Shown here: positions 11,815 through 24,769 of the stretch, one piece after another
Layout of the letters: every line of letters begins with the position of its first letter
Position numbering within the stretch: the stretch's first letter is position 1
DNA from: Bacillota bacterium
Lineage (GTDB): Bacteria > Bacillota > Sulfobacillia > JAUYEF01
DNA length: 60,681 nt
Assembly (NCBI GenBank): GCA_030691635.1
Contig: JAUYEF010000326.1
Coordinates: 1 to 60,681 of the forward strand
Reading direction: 5' to 3'
Translations under genes and position numbers: made by a program
The notes under the pieces: generated by a model
What the model was told of the DNA's origin: nothing
The model's database searches: none
What the model saw: only the letters and a program-made list of their open reading frames with translations

Positions 11815-13470
11815 GTGAAGGAACGCAAACGCCTGCTCAACCCATACACCGGGCTTGTTCTTGCGGCCGGGCTGGTAGGCATGCTGCTCTCACTCCCAGG
11901 CTCGTGGCCGGCGGACATGGCCAGGTACCCGCTCTTCGTGCTCCTCGCCTTCTTCGCCCAGGCGGGCACCCTGTCCCTTCCTGGGACCAGCATGCGGATC
12001 ACCAGGACTTACTATGTGCTCGGACCTGCGATCTACTTTTTCGGAGCCGTTCCTGCCGCTATGCTGAATGTGATCACATATATGTGCGGCGCGGTGCTGT
12101 TCCGGAAGACAGACACTCACAGGCTGGTGTTCAACCTGGGACAGTTCGCGTTCACCACAATACTGGCCGGTAAGGCGTTCGAAGCGGTGCGGAGGGCCGC
12201 CGGGCCTGATTCGGTCGAGTCTCTCTCGCTTGCGGTCCTGGCATGCCTTGTCACGTACATAACGCTGAACCACCTGCTGGTCAACATCTACCACCTGCTG
12301 AGGGCCTCTGGTCATAGGTGGGTGGAAGGGCTCAAATTGGACCTGATCGGTTACCTCATCGACGTCCCCCTGGGTATACTGGTCGCGGCGCTGACGAGCA
12401 TGTTCGGCACCACCGGCCTGCTGTCGGCATCGCTCTTCGTGGTCACCTCTCTGCTTCTTCTCAGGACGCTTGAGAGCATGCAGCGAACAAAGCGTGACAT
12501 GCAGGTCTTCTATGAGAACGCTCTCCGCATGTCATCGCACCTCGAAGGCCCCAGCGTCTTCACAGCTCTCGTCCAGTCCATCAGGCAGGCAGTCTCGTTC
12601 GAGTTCATTATCGTGTACCTGGTGTCTGGCGCTGAAGGGACTGTCGAGCCTGCATACTGGTTGGCGCCCAGCGACTGGCACAGTGAGATCGCGCGCCTCC
12701 AGGTGGGAGAAGGGGTCGTGGGGTCAGTCATAGCCTCCGTCAAGCCGGCTCTGGTCACTGAGGCGTTGGACGTCCACTTCTACAGGGCGCCCGACCAGCC
12801 ACCATTCAGGTCGCTTGTGGCCGCTCCTCTGGTGATCAGCGGGCATGCCATCGGCGCCGTGCTTGTGGCGAGCTTCATGCGGGCGCATTTCTCACCGCAC
12901 GACATGGGCATCATCTCACTGCTCTCGGAGCAGGCGGCGATATCGTTCAGGAACGCGACAATCTACGGCCAGACGCGAGAGCAAGCGATCACCGACCCGA
13001 TGACCGGCCTTTACAATTACAGGCATTTCCTGGCCAAGTTGCATGAGGAGATCGAGCGAGCACGGCTGGCAGGGAAAGAGTTGTCCCTGCTCTACCTGGA
13101 CTGGGACGGGCTGCGCCAGATAAACAACACGTACGGGCACCCGACCGGTGACGCGGCCCTCCGGGAACTGGCCGGAATACTCAGAGGGCTTGTGCGAAGG
13201 GCCGACATTCTGGCGCGGTACGCAGGCGATGAGTTCGTGCTGCTGATGCCCTGCGCCTGCCACGAGGACGCCCTCGCCACCGCCGCACGCATAGATGAGG
13301 CGCTCGAGTCGCGAGAGCCCACACAGGAGGTCCCGGTCGAGCGCTTCAACCTGAGCATCGGGGTCGCGTCGTTCCCGGCGGACGCGCTCGACGCGGACTC
13401 GCTCGTGAGAGAGGCGGACAAGCGGATGTACGAGGCAAAGTGGCGAAAGAAGCTTGAAGGCACGGCTTAG
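11815..13470 (+). CDS. Membrane sensor-GAF-GGDEF diguanylate cyclase
   Basis: Multi-TM N-terminus, GAF (GEGVVG..SLVAAPL), TDPMTGLYN, INNTYGH..GD, RRAD I-site, RYAGDEF. Confidence 0.92.
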   Translation: MKERKRLLNPYTGLVLAAGLVGMLLSLPGSWPADMARYPLFVLLAFFAQAGTLSLPGTSMRITRTYYVLGPAIYFFGAVPAAMLNVITYMCGAVLFRKTDTHRLVFNLGQFAFTTILAGKAFEAVRRAAGPDSVESLSLAVLACLVTYITLNHLLVNIYHLLRASGHRWVEGLKLDLIGYLIDVPLGILVAALTSMFGTTGLLSASLFVVTSLLLLRTLESMQRTKRDMQVFYENALRMSSHLEGPSVFTALVQSIRQAVSFEFIIVYLVSGAEGTVEPAYWLAPSDWHSEIARLQVGEGVVGSVIASVKPALVTEALDVHFYRAPDQPPFRSLVAAPLVISGHAIGAVLVASFMRAHFSPHDMGIISLLSEQAAISFRNATIYGQTREQAITDPMTGLYNYRHFLAKLHEEIERARLAGKELSLLYLDWDGLRQINNTYGHPTGDAALRELAGILRGLVRRADILARYAGDEFVLLMPCACHEDALATAARIDEALESREPTQEVPVERFNLSIGVASFPADALDADSLVREADKRMYEAKWRKKLEGTA

Positions 13471-19449: not shown

Positions 19450-20577
19450 TTGATCGACCAGAAGGTAAGTGTCGTCATCTTCGAGGGAGGCGGGGCCAAG
19501 AGTCCCATCGAGGAGACAATGGGGGAAGTACGGAAGCAAGTAACCCTCGACACGATAGAGAAATTCCGTCGCATCAGGGAGATCGACGAGATCATCCTGT
19601 GCACCAACCACGTCGACCTCGCTGAAGAAGCCGGCTCCCTCGGGGCTCAGATCGATTTCGACGACGACATCGCCGCATACCACTTCGGCACACGGTTGAC
19701 CAACCTCGTGAACGACCGGAAACTGGAGAATGTCATCTACATGGGCGGGGTCTCCGCGCCCCTGATCCGTGAGGATGAGATGGCCCAGGTCGCGATCGAC
19801 CTGAAGGAACGCAAGAATGTCGTCATAACGAACAACATCCAGTCGGCCGACCTCATAGCCTGGTCACCAGGCAAAGCGATCAACTACATAGAGCCTCCCC
19901 CAAACGATAACATCCTGGGCCTGCTGCTGCGCGGCATAGGCATGAAGCGCATGTTGATCCCGAACTCACCTCGCGTCAATTTCGACCTGGACACGCCGAC
20001 CGATATTCTGATCTATGGTTTGCAGGAAGAAGCGGGATCCCGCTCCAGGGCGGCGATCAGGGAACTCGACTGGGACGACTCGGTCGTGCGCGAGGCCGCG
20101 AAGGTCTTCGGCACCACTGAGGCGCATGTGGTGCTCACCGGCCGTGTCGGGCCTCCCGTGATGCAGTTCATCAGCATGAACCTGATCTGCCACCTGAGGG
20201 TCTACTCGGAGGAGAGGGGCATGAAAGCCCTGGGGCGCGAGGACAGGGGCGAAGTCATATCCTTCGTAGGACGCCTGATCGACCTCGCGGGCCCTGAAGG
20301 CTTCTTCAAGATCCTGGCCGAGATGTGCCAGGTGGCGTTCATCGACACGCGCGTGATCTTCGCCCATAAGAAGATCCAGCCGAGCGACTGGGACAGGTTC
20401 AACTCCGATCTTGGTCGCGCTGAGCTTGTACAGGACAAATTCGTCAAGGAATTCACCGAAGCGGCCCGGAAAGCCCCGTTCCCGGTGGTGCTCGGCGGCC
20501 ACTCGCTGATTTCCGGAGGCATCTGGCTCCTGGCTGAGGCGATCGCTGAAGAGCGAAGGAAGACCCAGGCTTACTAG
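19450..20577 (+). CDS. Conserved hypothetical protein, N-terminal nucleotidyltransferase/CofC-like fold suspected
   Basis: Well-formed 375 aa ORF with RBS; FDLDTPTD motif. Confidence 0.7.
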   Translation: MIDQKVSVVIFEGGGAKSPIEETMGEVRKQVTLDTIEKFRRIREIDEIILCTNHVDLAEEAGSLGAQIDFDDDIAAYHFGTRLTNLVNDRKLENVIYMGGVSAPLIREDEMAQVAIDLKERKNVVITNNIQSADLIAWSPGKAINYIEPPPNDNILGLLLRGIGMKRMLIPNSPRVNFDLDTPTDILIYGLQEEAGSRSRAAIRELDWDDSVVREAAKVFGTTEAHVVLTGRVGPPVMQFISMNLICHLRVYSEERGMKALGREDRGEVISFVGRLIDLAGPEGFFKILAEMCQVAFIDTRVIFAHKKIQPSDWDRFNSDLGRAELVQDKFVKEFTEAARKAPFPVVLGGHSLISGGIWLLAEAIAEERRKTQAY

Positions 20578-20731
20578 TACGAACAGGCCCCCGCTACGCA
20601 CACGCGCACGGGGGCGATTCTGTCCCACAAGATGCGACCAGCGTAGCACAATATGGCAGAATTGGGAGGAATCTAGTTCTCCTGGTCGAAACACCTACAA
20701 TGCTTAGGATCCAGATCATGGAGGACACTGG

Positions 20732-21373
20732 ATGGCTAGCTCTCGCGACGACCAGCTAGAGAAGATTGTAGGCCGGGTCAAGGATGTGCTCCGGGCTAAA
20801 GTCATCAGAGACGAAGGCGGCTCCGTCAGGGAAGTCCGGGTCCTGACGAACGAGGCAAAGAGCGTGCAGAAAATCACTCGCGATGTGGCTTCTGCCATCA
20901 GATCTCAGGGCGAAGAGGTAGACGCAGGCAGCATTCGCATTTCGCAAATGGCGAACGAGGACTGGTCTGAGATCGCGGGAGCGCGGCTCAAGCTTAAGTC
21001 GGTGTCCTTCGAGTCATCGGTGAGCGCTGCTGAGTCGAGAGTGACGCTTGTTCACGGTGACCAGGCCATATACGGTGTGGCAGCCGGGTCGGCCAGCTCA
21101 AAAGAGTCGCTCAGGATCGTCGCTCGCGCTACCCTGGAGGCAGCCAAGTCCTGCATTGATCCAAGCCCGGGCATGTTCGTCGAAGGCGTCATCGTAGCCG
21201 ACATGATCAATGCGAAGGTCGTGTTGGTCCTGGTATCCGTTTTCGGTCCGGACGGTGTTGAGTATTTGAGCGGTTCGTGTCCGGTGAGAATCGACGACAG
21301 AGATGCGACGGCACGTGCGACCCTTAGCGCCATCAACCGGAAATTTGCGCTGCTCGTAAGGGGAAATGATTGA
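20732..21373 (+). CDS. Hypothetical cytoplasmic protein, C-terminal region possibly LeuA-regulatory-domain-like
   Basis: GGAGG RBS; two repeats of beta-beta-beta-helix ending VARATLEAA / TARATLSAIN. Confidence 0.75.
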   Translation: MASSRDDQLEKIVGRVKDVLRAKVIRDEGGSVREVRVLTNEAKSVQKITRDVASAIRSQGEEVDAGSIRISQMANEDWSEIAGARLKLKSVSFESSVSAAESRVTLVHGDQAIYGVAAGSASSKESLRIVARATLEAAKSCIDPSPGMFVEGVIVADMINAKVVLVLVSVFGPDGVEYLSGSCPVRIDDRDATARATLSAINRKFALLVRGND

Positions 21374-21492
21374 TAGCGAATAGTCGATGACAAATCTTGG
21401 ACCGGCGGGCTGCAAAGCCGAGAGTGTTACAGCGGAGCGCAACCATCCCGACCTAGCGAAACCCGGGAGGTTTGCGTCACGGGGGATTGCCC

Positions 21493-21570
21493 ATGTCCCG
21501 TCTTGCGAAAGTTGTTCTCGCTCTGTTGGCTCTGGTTCTGGCCGGTGGAGCAAACATTCAGTGGGGCTAG
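21493..21570 (+). CDS. Unannotated 25-aa signal-peptide-like precursor MSRLAKVVLALLALVLAGGANIQWG
   Basis: GGGGGA RBS at 21481-21486, ATG 21493, TAG 21568-21570; basic N-region, hydrophobic core, short polar tail. Confidence 0.8.
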   Translation: MSRLAKVVLALLALVLAGGANIQWG

Positions 21571-21622
21571 TCACTAGCTAATTAACGGCCGTCGGTCCAA
21601 GTTCCCAAGAGGGTGCGCTTTC

Positions 21623-22942
21623 TTGAAATCGTTACCGCCCGCGCTACGCTTCTACGTAGTTTCAGTCATAGCAGCCGGAATCGGTCTATTAGTTGTGTTA
21701 AGGCCGGTAGTAACTTCAACTACACTGCCGGGCGTCGTTTTTTTTGTGCTTCTAGCTTTTGTGTCTGAGATGCTGCCGGTGCCCCTGCCCAACCGTGAAG
21801 CGACGATATCCGTCGGTTTTGTCGTCATCTACGCGTCGATCCTCCTCTTTGGCCCGAGGGAGGGCGCCTGGATAGCTGCGCTCGGCACGATACGGCTCAA
21901 GGACCTCAGCGGCAAGGTCAAGCCTCACATCGTGCTGTTCAACAGGGCGCTCCTGGGCATCTGCGGCGGGCTGGCCGGGCTCGTGTTTCTCTGGACAGGC
22001 GGCGTGCCCTACATCGTGGTCGGCGGCGGGCCGCTCATCCCGGCCGTGCTTGCGGGGCTTGTCTACATCACGGTCAACACGGTGCTCATGGTGGGCGTCA
22101 TGGCTCTCCAGAGCAAGGTGCCCCCGCTCCGGATGTTCCTTGAGAACTTCCGGTGGATGCTGCCCAACCTGGTGGTATACGAGCCGCTCGGCGCCATGCT
22201 CGCACAGGTGTACCTGAGACAGGGTCGACCGGCCGTCGCCCTGTTCCTTGTGCCGCTGCTGGTGGCAAGATGCTCGTTCCAGCTCTATATCAAGATGCGG
22301 ACTGCCTACGTGGAGACGATTTCCACTCTCACCGCGTCTCTCGATGCCAAGGACCCTTCGACGCTTGGCCATTCAGAACGCGTCGCCCGGTATGCGACGG
22401 AAATCGGACGGAAGATGGGGCTGGACTACCAGCAACTGGACCTGTTGCGGTACGTGGGCATCCTCCACGATATCGGCAAGATCGGTATCCGGGACGCCAT
22501 CCTGAAGAAGCCGGGGCGGTTCACCGCCGAGGAGTACGAAGAGATGAAGAAGCATCCCGGGCTGGGCGCCGGCATCATAGTCGGCATCAAGAGCCTTGGC
22601 ACAGCGTCCAGCTGGGTGCGCCATCACCATGAGAGATACGACGGCAACGGCTTCCCGGACCACCTGCAGGACGGCAACATACCCCTCGGGGCAAGGATCA
22701 TCGCCGTGGCCGATTCGCTGGATGCGATCACCTCAAAACGCGTGTACAAGCCCGCGATGGAATGGGAGACGGCTATAGCTGAGATGCAGCGGTGCTCAGG
22801 CACTCAGTTCGACCCAGAAGTCGTGCGGGTGTTTGTCAGCGTCGCCGACGCGCTCAAGCCGGACGGGCCTCCGCCTCAGGCCGCTGAGGTGGAAGGTGCG
22901 CGGCGTGAGGCCGCGGCGACGAAGGGAGGGGATGGCGCGTGA
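21623..22942 (+). CDS. Membrane-sensor HD-GYP phosphodiesterase 1
   Basis: Multi-TM N-terminus; DAKDPSTLGHSERVA, LHDIGKIG, HHHERYDGNGFP, IPLGARIIAVAD, GTQFDP. Confidence 0.93.
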   Translation: MKSLPPALRFYVVSVIAAGIGLLVVLRPVVTSTTLPGVVFFVLLAFVSEMLPVPLPNREATISVGFVVIYASILLFGPREGAWIAALGTIRLKDLSGKVKPHIVLFNRALLGICGGLAGLVFLWTGGVPYIVVGGGPLIPAVLAGLVYITVNTVLMVGVMALQSKVPPLRMFLENFRWMLPNLVVYEPLGAMLAQVYLRQGRPAVALFLVPLLVARCSFQLYIKMRTAYVETISTLTASLDAKDPSTLGHSERVARYATEIGRKMGLDYQQLDLLRYVGILHDIGKIGIRDAILKKPGRFTAEEYEEMKKHPGLGAGIIVGIKSLGTASSWVRHHHERYDGNGFPDHLQDGNIPLGARIIAVADSLDAITSKRVYKPAMEWETAIAEMQRCSGTQFDPEVVRVFVSVADALKPDGPPPQAAEVEGARREAAATKGGDGA

Positions 22943-24234
22943 AAGGCTCTCCTTCCTCGTACAGGGTGGTCGCGCCCCTGCTTTTTGTGCTGGCAGGACT
23001 GTCGGCGGCGTTTTCGCTGTTCGCTCTGACCGAAGACCTCTGGATCGGCGCCGGATTCATACTGATCACCCTTGGTGTGGCGCGGATCATACCTCTGGAC
23101 CTTCCTGGTGGGAGCCAGATCAACCTGGCGCCCGCCGTGGAAATAGCCGGCGCCCTGGCGATCGGCCCCGTAGTCTCGGCGGCGAGTTTCGTCGGACGCG
23201 GGCTCGCGCGCCTGTTCCAGAACTGGGGCCAGCAGCGGAAGATCGATCTCCACCAGCTTCTCTTCGATGTGACGGCGGAAAGCCTGGCGTCGTTCGTCGC
23301 GGGGTGGTACGCGCGGCGCGCCCTGGCAGGGACGCCGTCCGTCGCCACCATGGTGACACCGGTTGTCTGCGGGCTTGTCTACCTGACGGGACGGGAAGCG
23401 CTCGCGTCGGTCCTCAGCGCGCTGAGGTACCAGCTGAACGCCTTCGCGCTGTTCCTTCGGAGACTTGTCCATGGCGCCGGCAGGATGGCGTTACAGCTCG
23501 CCGTTGGGCTCGCGACGTACCTGATGTACAGGCTGATACCATTGACCGGCGGCACGCTGCTGGGATTTGTCGTGTTTGGACTCCTCGTCACGTACGCGGC
23601 AAAGCTGTACCTGGACATGAGGGCCATCTATTGGAGCACTCTTCTCGCGCTCATACCCGCCATTGAGGGGGAGTTCGAGTACGGTGAGGGCCATTCTAAG
23701 AGAGTGGCGACCTATGGCGCCGCGATGGCTCGGAAGCTCTTGCTGATAGAGGATGACGTGTTCGGGGTGTACGTGGGCGCTCTCGCCCACGACGTCGGCA
23801 TGGCGGGAATAGACGACAGGATAGTGAACAAGCAGGGCGCTCTCTCGGCGGAGGAATTCTCCGAGATCCAGCGTCATGTGGAGACCGGCGCAAACATCGT
23901 GCAGAAAGTGCCCTTCCTGAAGCCTGCGGTCGGTATCGTAAAGCACCACCATGAGAGGTGGGACGGCCTCGGCTATCCTGGTGGTGTCAAGGGACTGGGT
24001 ATTCCTCTCGGCGCAAGGATTGTGGCGGTAGCGGACGCGTTTGACGCCATGACGTCGAAGAGGCCCTATAGGGAGCAGCGGGGGCCTGAGGCGGCGCTGG
24101 AGGAATTGGGGAAGCACGCAGGCACGCAGTTCGATCCGGGCGTCGTCGCGGTGTTGAGGCGGGCCGTACATGAGGAGCTGAGGTGGGGCCGGGATGTTTT
24201 TGAGCGCTACTATTCTATGGATCTTAGTAGCTAA
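22939..24234 (+). CDS. Membrane-sensor HD-GYP phosphodiesterase 2
   Basis: Multi-TM N-terminus; GHSKRVA, AHDVGM, HHHERWDGLGYP, DAFDAMTSKRPYR; GTGA overlap with the upstream gene. Confidence 0.92.
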   Translation: MKGSPSSYRVVAPLLFVLAGLSAAFSLFALTEDLWIGAGFILITLGVARIIPLDLPGGSQINLAPAVEIAGALAIGPVVSAASFVGRGLARLFQNWGQQRKIDLHQLLFDVTAESLASFVAGWYARRALAGTPSVATMVTPVVCGLVYLTGREALASVLSALRYQLNAFALFLRRLVHGAGRMALQLAVGLATYLMYRLIPLTGGTLLGFVVFGLLVTYAAKLYLDMRAIYWSTLLALIPAIEGEFEYGEGHSKRVATYGAAMARKLLLIEDDVFGVYVGALAHDVGMAGIDDRIVNKQGALSAEEFSEIQRHVETGANIVQKVPFLKPAVGIVKHHHERWDGLGYPGGVKGLGIPLGARIVAVADAFDAMTSKRPYREQRGPEAALEELGKHAGTQFDPGVVAVLRRAVHEELRWGRDVFERYYSMDLSS

Positions 24235-24769
24235 GCTGTGCGGTGGCTCTTTCAGGAAACTTGCCGCCGCTGAGATCCGTGGAGTATGGATAATCTTCGC
24301 CGCACTGCTCGTGAGGTTTCTCCTTTATAGCGGCCGGTTGAAACCGGACGCGGTGACGGCGGGTGTGCTGCACACAAGCGCTTTCGTGCTTCTTCTCTTC
24401 GCGTTTGCAGCCAACTGGGACATCCACGGGATGCCAATCGCGGCGAGTGGCTCGCTGCTGAACGCCACCGCTGTCGCTGCGAACGGGGGCAGGATGCCGG
24501 TCGGGCGAATGGCGCTGGAAGTGGTCGGGCTGTGGGAAACGACGGGGAAAGCTCTTGCCGCCGGCCAGAGCATGACACATGTGCTTGCGGAGAACTCGGG
24601 TAACCTGGCGTTCCTCGGCGATTGCCTGTGGCTGAAATTGCCCTGGGGGATGCCGAGCATATACAGCATAGGTGATGTGCTGCTCATGATCGGGATGTTC
24701 TTCGCGATCATGGAGCTGATGGGAGTCAGCCTGCGGCTCAGGCCGGTCGAACGCAGGCGCGCAGGTTGA
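24194..24769 (+). CDS. DUF5317-like membrane protein
   Basis: GGSFRKL, LN..AVAANGGRMPV, H......LAFLGD, YSIGDVL motifs recalled for this family. Confidence 0.8.
   Translation: MFLSATILWILVAKLCGGSFRKLAAAEIRGVWIIFAALLVRFLLYSGRLKPDAVTAGVLHTSAFVLLLFAFAANWDIHGMPIAASGSLLNATAVAANGGRMPVGRMALEVVGLWETTGKALAAGQSMTHVLAENSGNLAFLGDCLWLKLPWGMPSIYSIGDVLLMIGMFFAIMELMGVSLRLRPVERRRAG

Follow-up and report, generated by a model that had tools for sequence, protein, structure and literature searches.

A conserved 25-codon gene behind a structured leader, next to a MASE9-HD-GYP gene: a candidate membrane microprotein with a possible link to cyclic di-GMP turnover

Small single-pass membrane proteins are known as regulators or subunits of membrane sensors and transporters in bacteria, among them MgrB and SafA with PhoQ, KdpF with KdpABC, and AcrZ with AcrB. 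Here we describe a gene of 25 codons that lies immediately upstream of a gene for a MASE9-HD-GYP membrane protein in a stretch of 60,681 nucleotides (nt) from a Bacillota bacterium (GTDB lineage Bacteria; Bacillota; Sulfobacillia; JAUYEF01; NCBI GenBank assembly GCA_030691635.1, contig JAUYEF010000326.1, positions 1 to 60,681 of the forward strand; hereafter, the window) and for the product of which the MgrB-like small membrane regulators of sensors appear, by analogy, to be the nearest functional class. The likeness consists in the size class, a single hydrophobic helix, the location of the gene beside or near that of the partner and the proposed helix-helix packing, but there is no sequence relation, the partner here would be the MASE9 domain of an HD-GYP enzyme, and proteins of 24-28 residues are at the very short end of this class. 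Another comparison is with the precursors of the Phr, PapR, NprX and SHP pheromones, which likewise combine a basic N-terminus and a hydrophobic stretch with a possibly active C-terminus and, in the case of SHP, fall within a similar size range. Here, however, there is no adjacent RRNPP or Rgg gene, the core of the peptide is conserved across classes, and the neighbouring gene encodes a membrane enzyme of cyclic di-GMP (c-di-GMP) metabolism.

The closest published analogue that we found is the CD1980.2 family of Clostridioides difficile (Nat Commun 2026, PMC13724677), which is similar in theme but not in sequence, size or leader. That article describes 58-residue, multicopy proteins with a predicted four-helix fold and reports no homologues beyond C. 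difficile. As in the present case, these are small, membrane-associated, c-di-GMP-linked proteins that had escaped annotation and have genes preceded by a structured 5' leader; that leader, however, is a class I c-di-GMP riboswitch, whereas the leader described here matches no Rfam family, and a 58-residue, multicopy family of one species contrasts with a 25-residue, single-copy, one-helix family that is found in several classes. The architecture of the downstream gene, MASE9 combined with HD-GYP, is one of those described for MASE9 proteins by Galperin and Chou, who make the case for ligand binding by MASE9 inside the membrane (bioRxiv 10.1101/2021.11.05.467447). The passages of that preprint on these proteins mention no upstream small open reading frame (ORF), no genes for the 213-residue and 375-residue proteins discussed below and no DUF5317, and its main text contains neither the term 'small protein' nor the name 'DUF5317'. 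Our literature searches found no small-protein partner of MASE9 or HD-GYP proteins, and a search on the name DUF5317 found no mention of it.

The ORF at 21493-21570 is a genuine conserved gene, not a chance ORF. The first-pass annotation, which was made from the sequence alone, had pointed to a hidden ORF of 25 codons with GGGGGA 6 nt before the ATG at 21493, and had described its product as carrying basic residues R3 and K6, an 11-residue hydrophobic core (here V7-A17) and a terminal GGA-NIQWG before the stop codon, which is TAG; the sequence, which reads cacGGGGGAttgcccATG across the Shine-Dalgarno site and the start, and its translation bear out each of these details. Conservation of start, stop and frame in relatives had been proposed there as the test on which the prediction should stand or fall, and all three are kept in 64 distinct homologous coding sequences (CDS) of 24-28 codons that come from many families and several classes. 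Among these CDS, the start codon is ATG in 32, GTG in 30 and TTG in 2, and a GGAGG/GGGGG-type site, read by eye, is located no more than 20 nt upstream in 62, the exceptions being L014, which has none, and L004, in which it is farther off.

Furthermore, the differences among the 64 CDS are those of a protein-coding gene. The proportion of nonsynonymous differences (pN) is lower than that of synonymous differences (pS) in 2012 of the 2016 pairs, with a median pS of 0.74, which is near saturation, and a median pN of 0.33; in the 770 unsaturated pairs, dN/dS is approximately 0.33. The mean pairwise differences at codon positions 1, 2 and 3 are 0.415, 0.247 and 0.648, respectively. Invariant Leu, Ala and Gly positions are each encoded by 4-6 different codons; a Leu that is present in 58 of the 64 CDS, for example, is encoded by TTG in 16, CTG in 13, CTT in 10, CTC in 9, TTA in 7 and CTA in 3.

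How widespread is this gene? A DNA search with positions 20732-22942 against 40 relatives yielded 20 loci, 17 of which contain a homologous short ORF; among the other three, one is on a contig that begins within the HD-GYP gene, and the remaining two represent HD-GYP paralogues that lack the MASE9 part. In a genome of a different family (G016), the nucleotide match is confined to the small ORF (query 780-837, that is, window 21511-21568, with 83% identity). A profile built from 14 of the peptides finds matches in 88 of the 210 genomes of the class and in 57 of its 109 genera (E<=0.01), as well as in 87 of 401 sampled genomes of the phylum (E<=0.001), 78 of these 87 being outside the class. These are under-counts because genome G033, which has no profile match, nevertheless carries VKKLIRIILALSALLLAGVRSWQVG at the expected place; conversely, 20 of the 20 weakest class matches that were retrieved are genuine copies in the same gene context. 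The degenerate DNA pattern L-A-L-x-A-L-x-L-A-G-G-A-[NS]-x-[QK]-W occurs at 15 places, each of them in this same gene context, in a collection with one genome for each of about 185,000 species; the carriers include Thermoanaerobacterium saccharolyticum NTOU1, a Caldanaerobacter metagenome-assembled genome (MAG) and some MAGs with NCBI labels of other phyla. The same cluster is present in MAGs titled 'Candidatus Sumerlaeota' or 'Ignavibacteriales' (L058, L059, L061, L063, L072 and L071); the L071 peptide is identical to that of Bacillota MAGs, which suggests mislabelled or mis-binned records. The gene is single-copy. The peptide profile also matches 27 clusters of predicted proteins of 24-83 residues in a library of 1.84 billion representatives (E<=0.001), at the C-terminal end in 26 of the 27, so some pipelines have already called these ORFs. 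There is no Pfam family for the peptide, and the only NCBIfam match is LptM, with an E-value of 0.79 and 9.9 bits against a cut-off of 27.7; we are dealing with a family of proteins of about 25 residues that has no coverage in current Pfam or NCBIfam.

An alternative start, TTG at 21472, which would yield a form of 32 residues, was considered and found improbable, given that the homologues begin at an aligned Met or Val and that a strain variant changes this TTG to CTG. Contigs from three sequencing runs contain the strain variants T21472C, C21492G and C21506T: the first of these is the loss of the upstream in-frame TTG, the second is located immediately before the ATG, and the third is A5V, at a variable position of the peptide. 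Contigs assembled from two RNA libraries of one study cover 21390-21733 and 21464-21874, thus bridging the ORF and the start of the HD-GYP gene, and the ORF in them is intact apart from A5V, which goes together with the change of TTG 21472 to CTG; parts that are devoid of such cover, for example 21219-21389, carry no weight. A simple scan of the plus strand revealed no sigma-70-like promoter.

The character of the peptide is uniform. In all 59 distinct peptides, the best 18-residue Kyte-Doolittle mean is at least 1.78, compared with the usual cut of 1.6 on what is a crude scale rather than a topology predictor; 58 of the 59 have 2-4 Lys or Arg among the first nine residues, and 58 of the 59 lack acidic residues. 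The best-kept columns of the alignment are those of the hydrophobic core and AGGA, not those of the tail (L 60/64, A 60/64, L 58/64, G 56/64), with L14, A17 and G18 retained in 56-60 of the 64 CDS. The spacing of the small residues, at i, i+3/4 and i+7, hints at a face for helix packing, which in the peptide encoded in the window would comprise A10, A13, A17 and G18-G19-A20. The tail follows the pattern polar, hydrophobic or aromatic, Q/K/R, W/V/L, G, and is 5 residues long in 37 and 6 residues long in 19 of the 59 peptides; it comes in 45 different forms and contains a Trp in 32 and any aromatic residue in 53. The overall organization is the n-h-c layout of a Sec-type signal peptide, with a basic n-region, a hydrophobic core and small residues at the GGA|N site, where position -3 is small in 64/64 and position -1 in 63/64 (alignment columns 21 and 23).

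So what could be the function of such a peptide? One clue is the company that the gene keeps. A MASE9-HD-GYP orthologue follows on the same strand in 28/30, 7/7, 15/15 and 20/20 loci of the sets inspected, the two exceptions being contig ends, with a median gap of 46.5 nt between the small ORF and the HD-GYP gene (21-124, n=62). The hypothesis that we favour, and to which we assign about an even chance, is that the gene encodes a single-pass membrane microprotein that packs against the transmembrane (TM) domain of MASE9 as an accessory subunit or modulator. Under this hypothesis, the small ORF would be the first cistron of a predicted operon that also contains the gene for the MASE9-HD-GYP protein, a putative c-di-GMP phosphodiesterase, and would have its own Shine-Dalgarno site for translation, controlled by the conserved structured leader; R3 and K6 would be at the cytoplasmic face of the membrane and the polar/aromatic tail NIQWG at the outer face; and the peptide helix would pack on the MASE9 TM domain through its small-residue face and so set the activity or stability of the enzyme. 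Coding capacity, conservation, synteny, hydrophobic character and the conserved structure of the leader are observed; it is insertion into the membrane, topology, binding to MASE9 and any effect on c-di-GMP that we infer. Co-folding of MASE9 residues 1-235 with the peptide, from our own alignments of 44 and 59 rows, respectively, is compatible with this scenario: the score is 0.52 compared with 0.00 for the best of 3 controls, which the tool grades as 'weak support', at least 96% of contacts are shared between runs, and the predicted local distance difference test (pLDDT) value of the partner is at least 69. In the calibration of this procedure, on a set that contains no chain shorter than 30 residues, 58 of the 80 solved complexes and 2 of the 110 mismatched pairs passed the mark, but at a score of 0.60 or less only 7 of those 80 did so, together with both mismatches.

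A second line of evidence comes from a paralogous module on contig C62 of the same assembly. It comprises a type I phosphodiesterase/nucleotide pyrophosphatase gene, a paralogue of the 213-residue protein, an ORF of 23 codons and a MASE9-HD gene, so that a second peptide family adjoins a paralogous MASE9 gene and the co-occurrence of peptide and MASE9 is repeated. The 23-residue ORF is kept in 5/5 metagenome contigs (L101-L105), in which the MASE9 proteins are 63-95% identical, with the same start, stop and Shine-Dalgarno site and with conservative changes; its product (MFSS...GNGVVxW) is hydrophobic and ends in Trp, without a basic N-region or a cleavage-type motif. AGCGGAG/AGCGAAG repeats are present in the C62 leader as well, and the contig ends before any DUF5317 gene could appear. 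The C62 module was not found in 60 relatives (E<=1e-20), and with a bin contamination of 5.29%, this absence makes either a rare paralogue or a contaminant contig possible.

Several considerations weigh against packing on MASE9. A hydrophobic core of 11-14 residues is rather brief for spanning the membrane and is what the h-region of a signal peptide typically looks like, and the conserved small residues at GGA|N fit cleavage equally well. Synteny ties the ORF to the DUF5317 gene and to the genes for the 213-residue and 375-residue proteins just as it does to the MASE9 gene. The co-folding tool carries the warning that, unless a pairing was already likely, a pass this weak will more often be false than true, and the controls may not have been hydrophobic helices. 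The contigs from RNA libraries are no proof of transcription because such libraries can contain DNA, and the two runs belong to a single study. Finally, an open frame alone proves nothing inasmuch as stops are often absent from the other frames of these 75 nt as well, in 49, 44 and 34 of the 64 loci.

Among the alternatives, an exported or processed signalling peptide survives best, although we consider it unlikely. In this scenario, the precursor would be cut after GGA by signal peptidase, or by an intramembrane protease, and the C-terminal fragment would be sensed by MASE9, outside the cell or in the membrane, such that cell density is converted into c-di-GMP hydrolysis. The n-h-c layout, the short, diversified and mostly aromatic tail, and the adjacent gene for an orphan membrane sensor all speak for it, and the small residues at -3 and -1, kept in 63 of the 64 CDS, are what keeps it alive. 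The description of the ORF in the first-pass annotation as 'almost entirely a signal peptide' holds to the extent that the product looks like one and has these small residues, but not with respect to its core, LALLALVLAGGA, which is the best-conserved part and is far better kept across classes than an export signal requires. Peptide pheromone precursors diverge fast between species, and those of Phr and PapR are longer than 25 residues. The proposed likeness to Phr/PapR pheromones finds no backing in the locus, given the conserved core and variable tail and the absence of a receptor family among the neighbours: no match to the Rap, NprR, PlcR or Rgg (TPR/RRNPP) receptor families was obtained with Pfam or NCBIfam for the five neighbours and eight further genes, nor did these databases yield any peptide-processing, export or isoprenyl-transferase family among the neighbours. 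The suggested resemblance to ComX-type peptides with a modified Trp finds no support either, considering that Trp is present in the tail of only 32 of the 59 peptides and that neither a polyprenyl-synthase (ComQ-type), or other isoprenyl-transferase, nor a kinase (ComP-type) family is found among the neighbours by Pfam or NCBIfam. Furthermore, the paralogous 23-residue peptide lacks a basic N-region and a cleavage-type site.

A somewhat smaller probability attaches to a membrane microprotein with a partner other than MASE9, be it DUF5317, the pathway of the 375-residue nucleotidyltransferase-like and 213-residue proteins, or an unrelated membrane complex. The whole five-gene order, namely 375-residue gene, 213-residue gene, small ORF, MASE9-HD-GYP and DUF5317, is conserved across the loci, with the second HD-GYP gene being optional, and for this reason synteny alone cannot single out MASE9; moreover, DUF5317 is itself an uncharacterised membrane protein. 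The 213-residue gene is located upstream of the small ORF in 23/30, 7/7, 15/15 and 19/20 loci, at a median distance of 128 nt (60-255, n=54), and DUF5317 follows the HD-GYP gene in most of the loci that reach that far. The tightest spacing, however, is to the HD-GYP gene, the weak pass in co-folding was obtained with MASE9, and the paralogous module keeps the peptide beside MASE9 while the first gene is replaced by that of the type I phosphodiesterase/nucleotide pyrophosphatase.

The region upstream of the gene brings in another player, a conserved structured leader. An invariant AGCGGAG is located 60-70 nt before the start codon, and a second AGCG, 38-47 nt before it, occupies the loop of a hairpin, the arms of which differ between lineages: there are 44 different 5' arms, and the median stem is 7 base pairs (bp) long. 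In an alignment-free test on the 55 leaders that have the motif (9 of the 64 do not), a stem of at least 5 bp encloses the second AGCG in 51, compared with 30% when the flanks are shuffled. When 32 leaders are aligned with plain MAFFT, pairing in the helix amounts to 79.6%, compared with 61.4% in shuffles, 0 of 500 of which reach the observed value; all 7 of its 7 pairs change on both sides, and controls slid along the alignment drop to 16-55%. RNAalifold recovers the same hairpin from the model-based alignment of the leaders, and finds no structure in the first 64-sequence alignment (A8) because the stems in it are out of register. The leader model (R1) matches this locus with an E-value of 7.7e-5 and the leader position in 51 of 65 loci at E<=1; leaders of the Thermoanaerobacterium type, with the sequence AGCGTAGCG and a different hairpin, escape it. 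In 14 of 41 relatives (E<=0.01), there is one match per genome, always abutting the small ORF, a co-location that is not independent of the ORF, given that the model contains the Shine-Dalgarno site and the start codon. A second match in the genome under study (C108:4115-4188, E 0.066) has no TAGCG loop and was taken as a chance hit. No Rfam 15 family, the c-di-GMP-I and c-di-GMP-II riboswitches included, corresponds to 21399-21495; a cmscan run on 20500-22500 at E<=10 returned five chance-level matches. The leader could be a new riboswitch or a protein-binding leader; the combination of GGA-containing motifs with a nearby csrA gene is only a lead toward an RNA-binding protein.

The leader also gives some substance to the notion of a regulatory upstream ORF, in which the act of translation, together with the structured leader, sets HD-GYP expression and the peptide itself has no job. 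As the first cistron, the ORF lies 21-124 nt ahead of the HD-GYP start, and it directly follows the leader, the 3' end of which meets the Shine-Dalgarno site. Nevertheless, we regard this notion as quite improbable because the amino acids are under purifying selection while the synonymous sites are saturated, the length and the C-terminal pattern of the peptide are kept across classes, and in the window a simple scan found no terminator-like site between the ORF and the HD-GYP gene. That the ORF is not a gene at all and owes its conservation to the RNA leader or to a gene on the opposite strand can hardly be entertained: antisense frames are stop-free in 44-49 of the 64 loci, and a 158-codon antisense ORF spans 21098-21574, but open antisense frames are to be expected where coding sequence is rich in G+C and in Leu and Ala, variability in the plus frame peaks at the third codon position and is lowest at the second, the Shine-Dalgarno site, start and stop are kept in the plus frame only, and the structured leader ends at the start codon.

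Table 1. Features of the microprotein locus in window coordinates, and of the paralogous ORF on contig C62
Feature	Position	Strand	Basis
25-codon microprotein gene (plus stop), MSRLAKVVLALLALVLAGGANIQWG	21493..21570	+	translation; homologue alignment; codon statistics
Shine-Dalgarno site GGGGGA	21481..21486	+	6 nt between site and ATG 21493
Conserved leader: AGCGGAG 21431-21437; hairpin arms 21446-21450 / 21464-21468; loop TAGCG 21454-21458; then Shine-Dalgarno site and start	21419..21495	+	motifs, spacing, covariation
Upstream box GGACCGGCGG, possible leader 5' end or promoter-proximal site	21399..21408	+	in many of 54 spacers, about 95 nt before the start codon
MASE9 + HD-GYP (HD_5) membrane protein, 439 residues	21623..22942	+	Pfam HD_5 6.1e-34, MASE9 1.2e-05; alignment A4
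213-residue protein, no known family, usual upstream neighbour	20732..21373	+	no Pfam/NCBIfam match; synteny
375-residue protein, no known family, always the first gene of the cluster	19450..20577	+	no Pfam match; fold comparison
Second membrane HD-GYP protein, 431 residues, GYP motif kept	22939..24234	+	Pfam; some lineages only
DUF5317 membrane protein, last gene of the cluster	24194..24769	+	Pfam PF17248, 1.4e-30
23-codon ORF MFSSVLDFFGSLLSLLGNGVVGW behind AAAGGAGG	L093:4924-4995 (L093 = G000:C62:11000-16828)		translation; relatives

The neighbourhood of the cluster can be outlined by Pfam (Table 1): the genes are, in order, ComFC-like, FlgK, FlgL, FliW, CsrA, HPF, the 375-residue protein, the 213-residue protein, the small ORF, MASE9+HD-GYP, the second HD-GYP, DUF5317, SecA and PrfB. 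In the first HD-GYP protein, as in the majority of its orthologues in alignment A4, the motif reads GFP instead of GYP (HHERYDGNGFP in the window). Loci L062, L068 and L071 share the second HD-GYP gene, which most other loci lack. An apparent fusion of HD-GYP with DUF5317 (615 residues) is an artefact, with a stop codon at codon 421; in L030, L054, L057, L077 and L079, tblastn matches to the HD-GYP protein likewise run through an in-frame stop near codon 412-424, which is the end of the gene, the next gene being in the same frame. A second MASE9 protein, in this case combined with GAF and GGDEF domains (diguanylate cyclase type), is encoded at 11815-13470, 8 kb upstream.

For the two proteins encoded ahead of the small ORF, sequence searches of the PDB detected nothing significant, and NCBIfam has no match for either. 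The fold predicted for the 375-residue protein (pLDDT 92.6) resembles in its N-terminal half the FbiD/CofC-type guanylyltransferases (6bwg, E 7.2e-9), to which a predicted extra C-terminal domain is added. The 213-residue protein (predicted fold, pLDDT 89.1) appears to consist of a small alpha/beta N-terminal domain and a C-terminal domain similar to the regulatory domain of LeuA/citramalate synthase (3hpz, E 6.6e-5; 3f6g). Its family is represented in 172 of the 210 genomes of the class, mostly by two copies, the second of which is located elsewhere; in the genome under study, this second copy (L094, G000:C269:1176-1904) is found beside sporulation genes, with neighbours that, judging from the translations, we take to be spoIIM, ald, xerD and the spoIIA operon.

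Beyond the accessory subunit or modulator that we favour, a bolder possibility is that the peptide is the input of MASE9, either as a membrane co-sensor or as a processed, self-made signal that is read in the membrane, and switches the HD-GYP phosphodiesterase, while a structured leader of a new class, consisting of AGCGGAG and a hairpin with UAGCG in its loop, would gate peptide synthesis and act as a riboswitch or as a site for a module-encoded or CsrA-like protein. We advance this idea as a speculation with a rather low chance of being correct.

What does the locus mean for the biology of c-di-GMP signalling? MASE9 is a widespread membrane sensor domain without a known signal, and the HD-GYP proteins are the least understood of the c-di-GMP phosphodiesterases. 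A microprotein that is encoded directly upstream across several classes is a concrete candidate partner of MASE9 that can be put to test, and the same applies to the second peptide family; cultured, non-pathogenic carriers such as Thermoanaerobacterium saccharolyticum exist. The gene and its leader add an unannotated family of proteins of about 25 residues and a covarying RNA to what is covered by current Pfam, NCBIfam and Rfam, and they define an uncharacterised five-gene c-di-GMP module between hpf and secA. If the peptide does turn out to be the input of MASE9, a peptide cue would be tied directly to c-di-GMP turnover.

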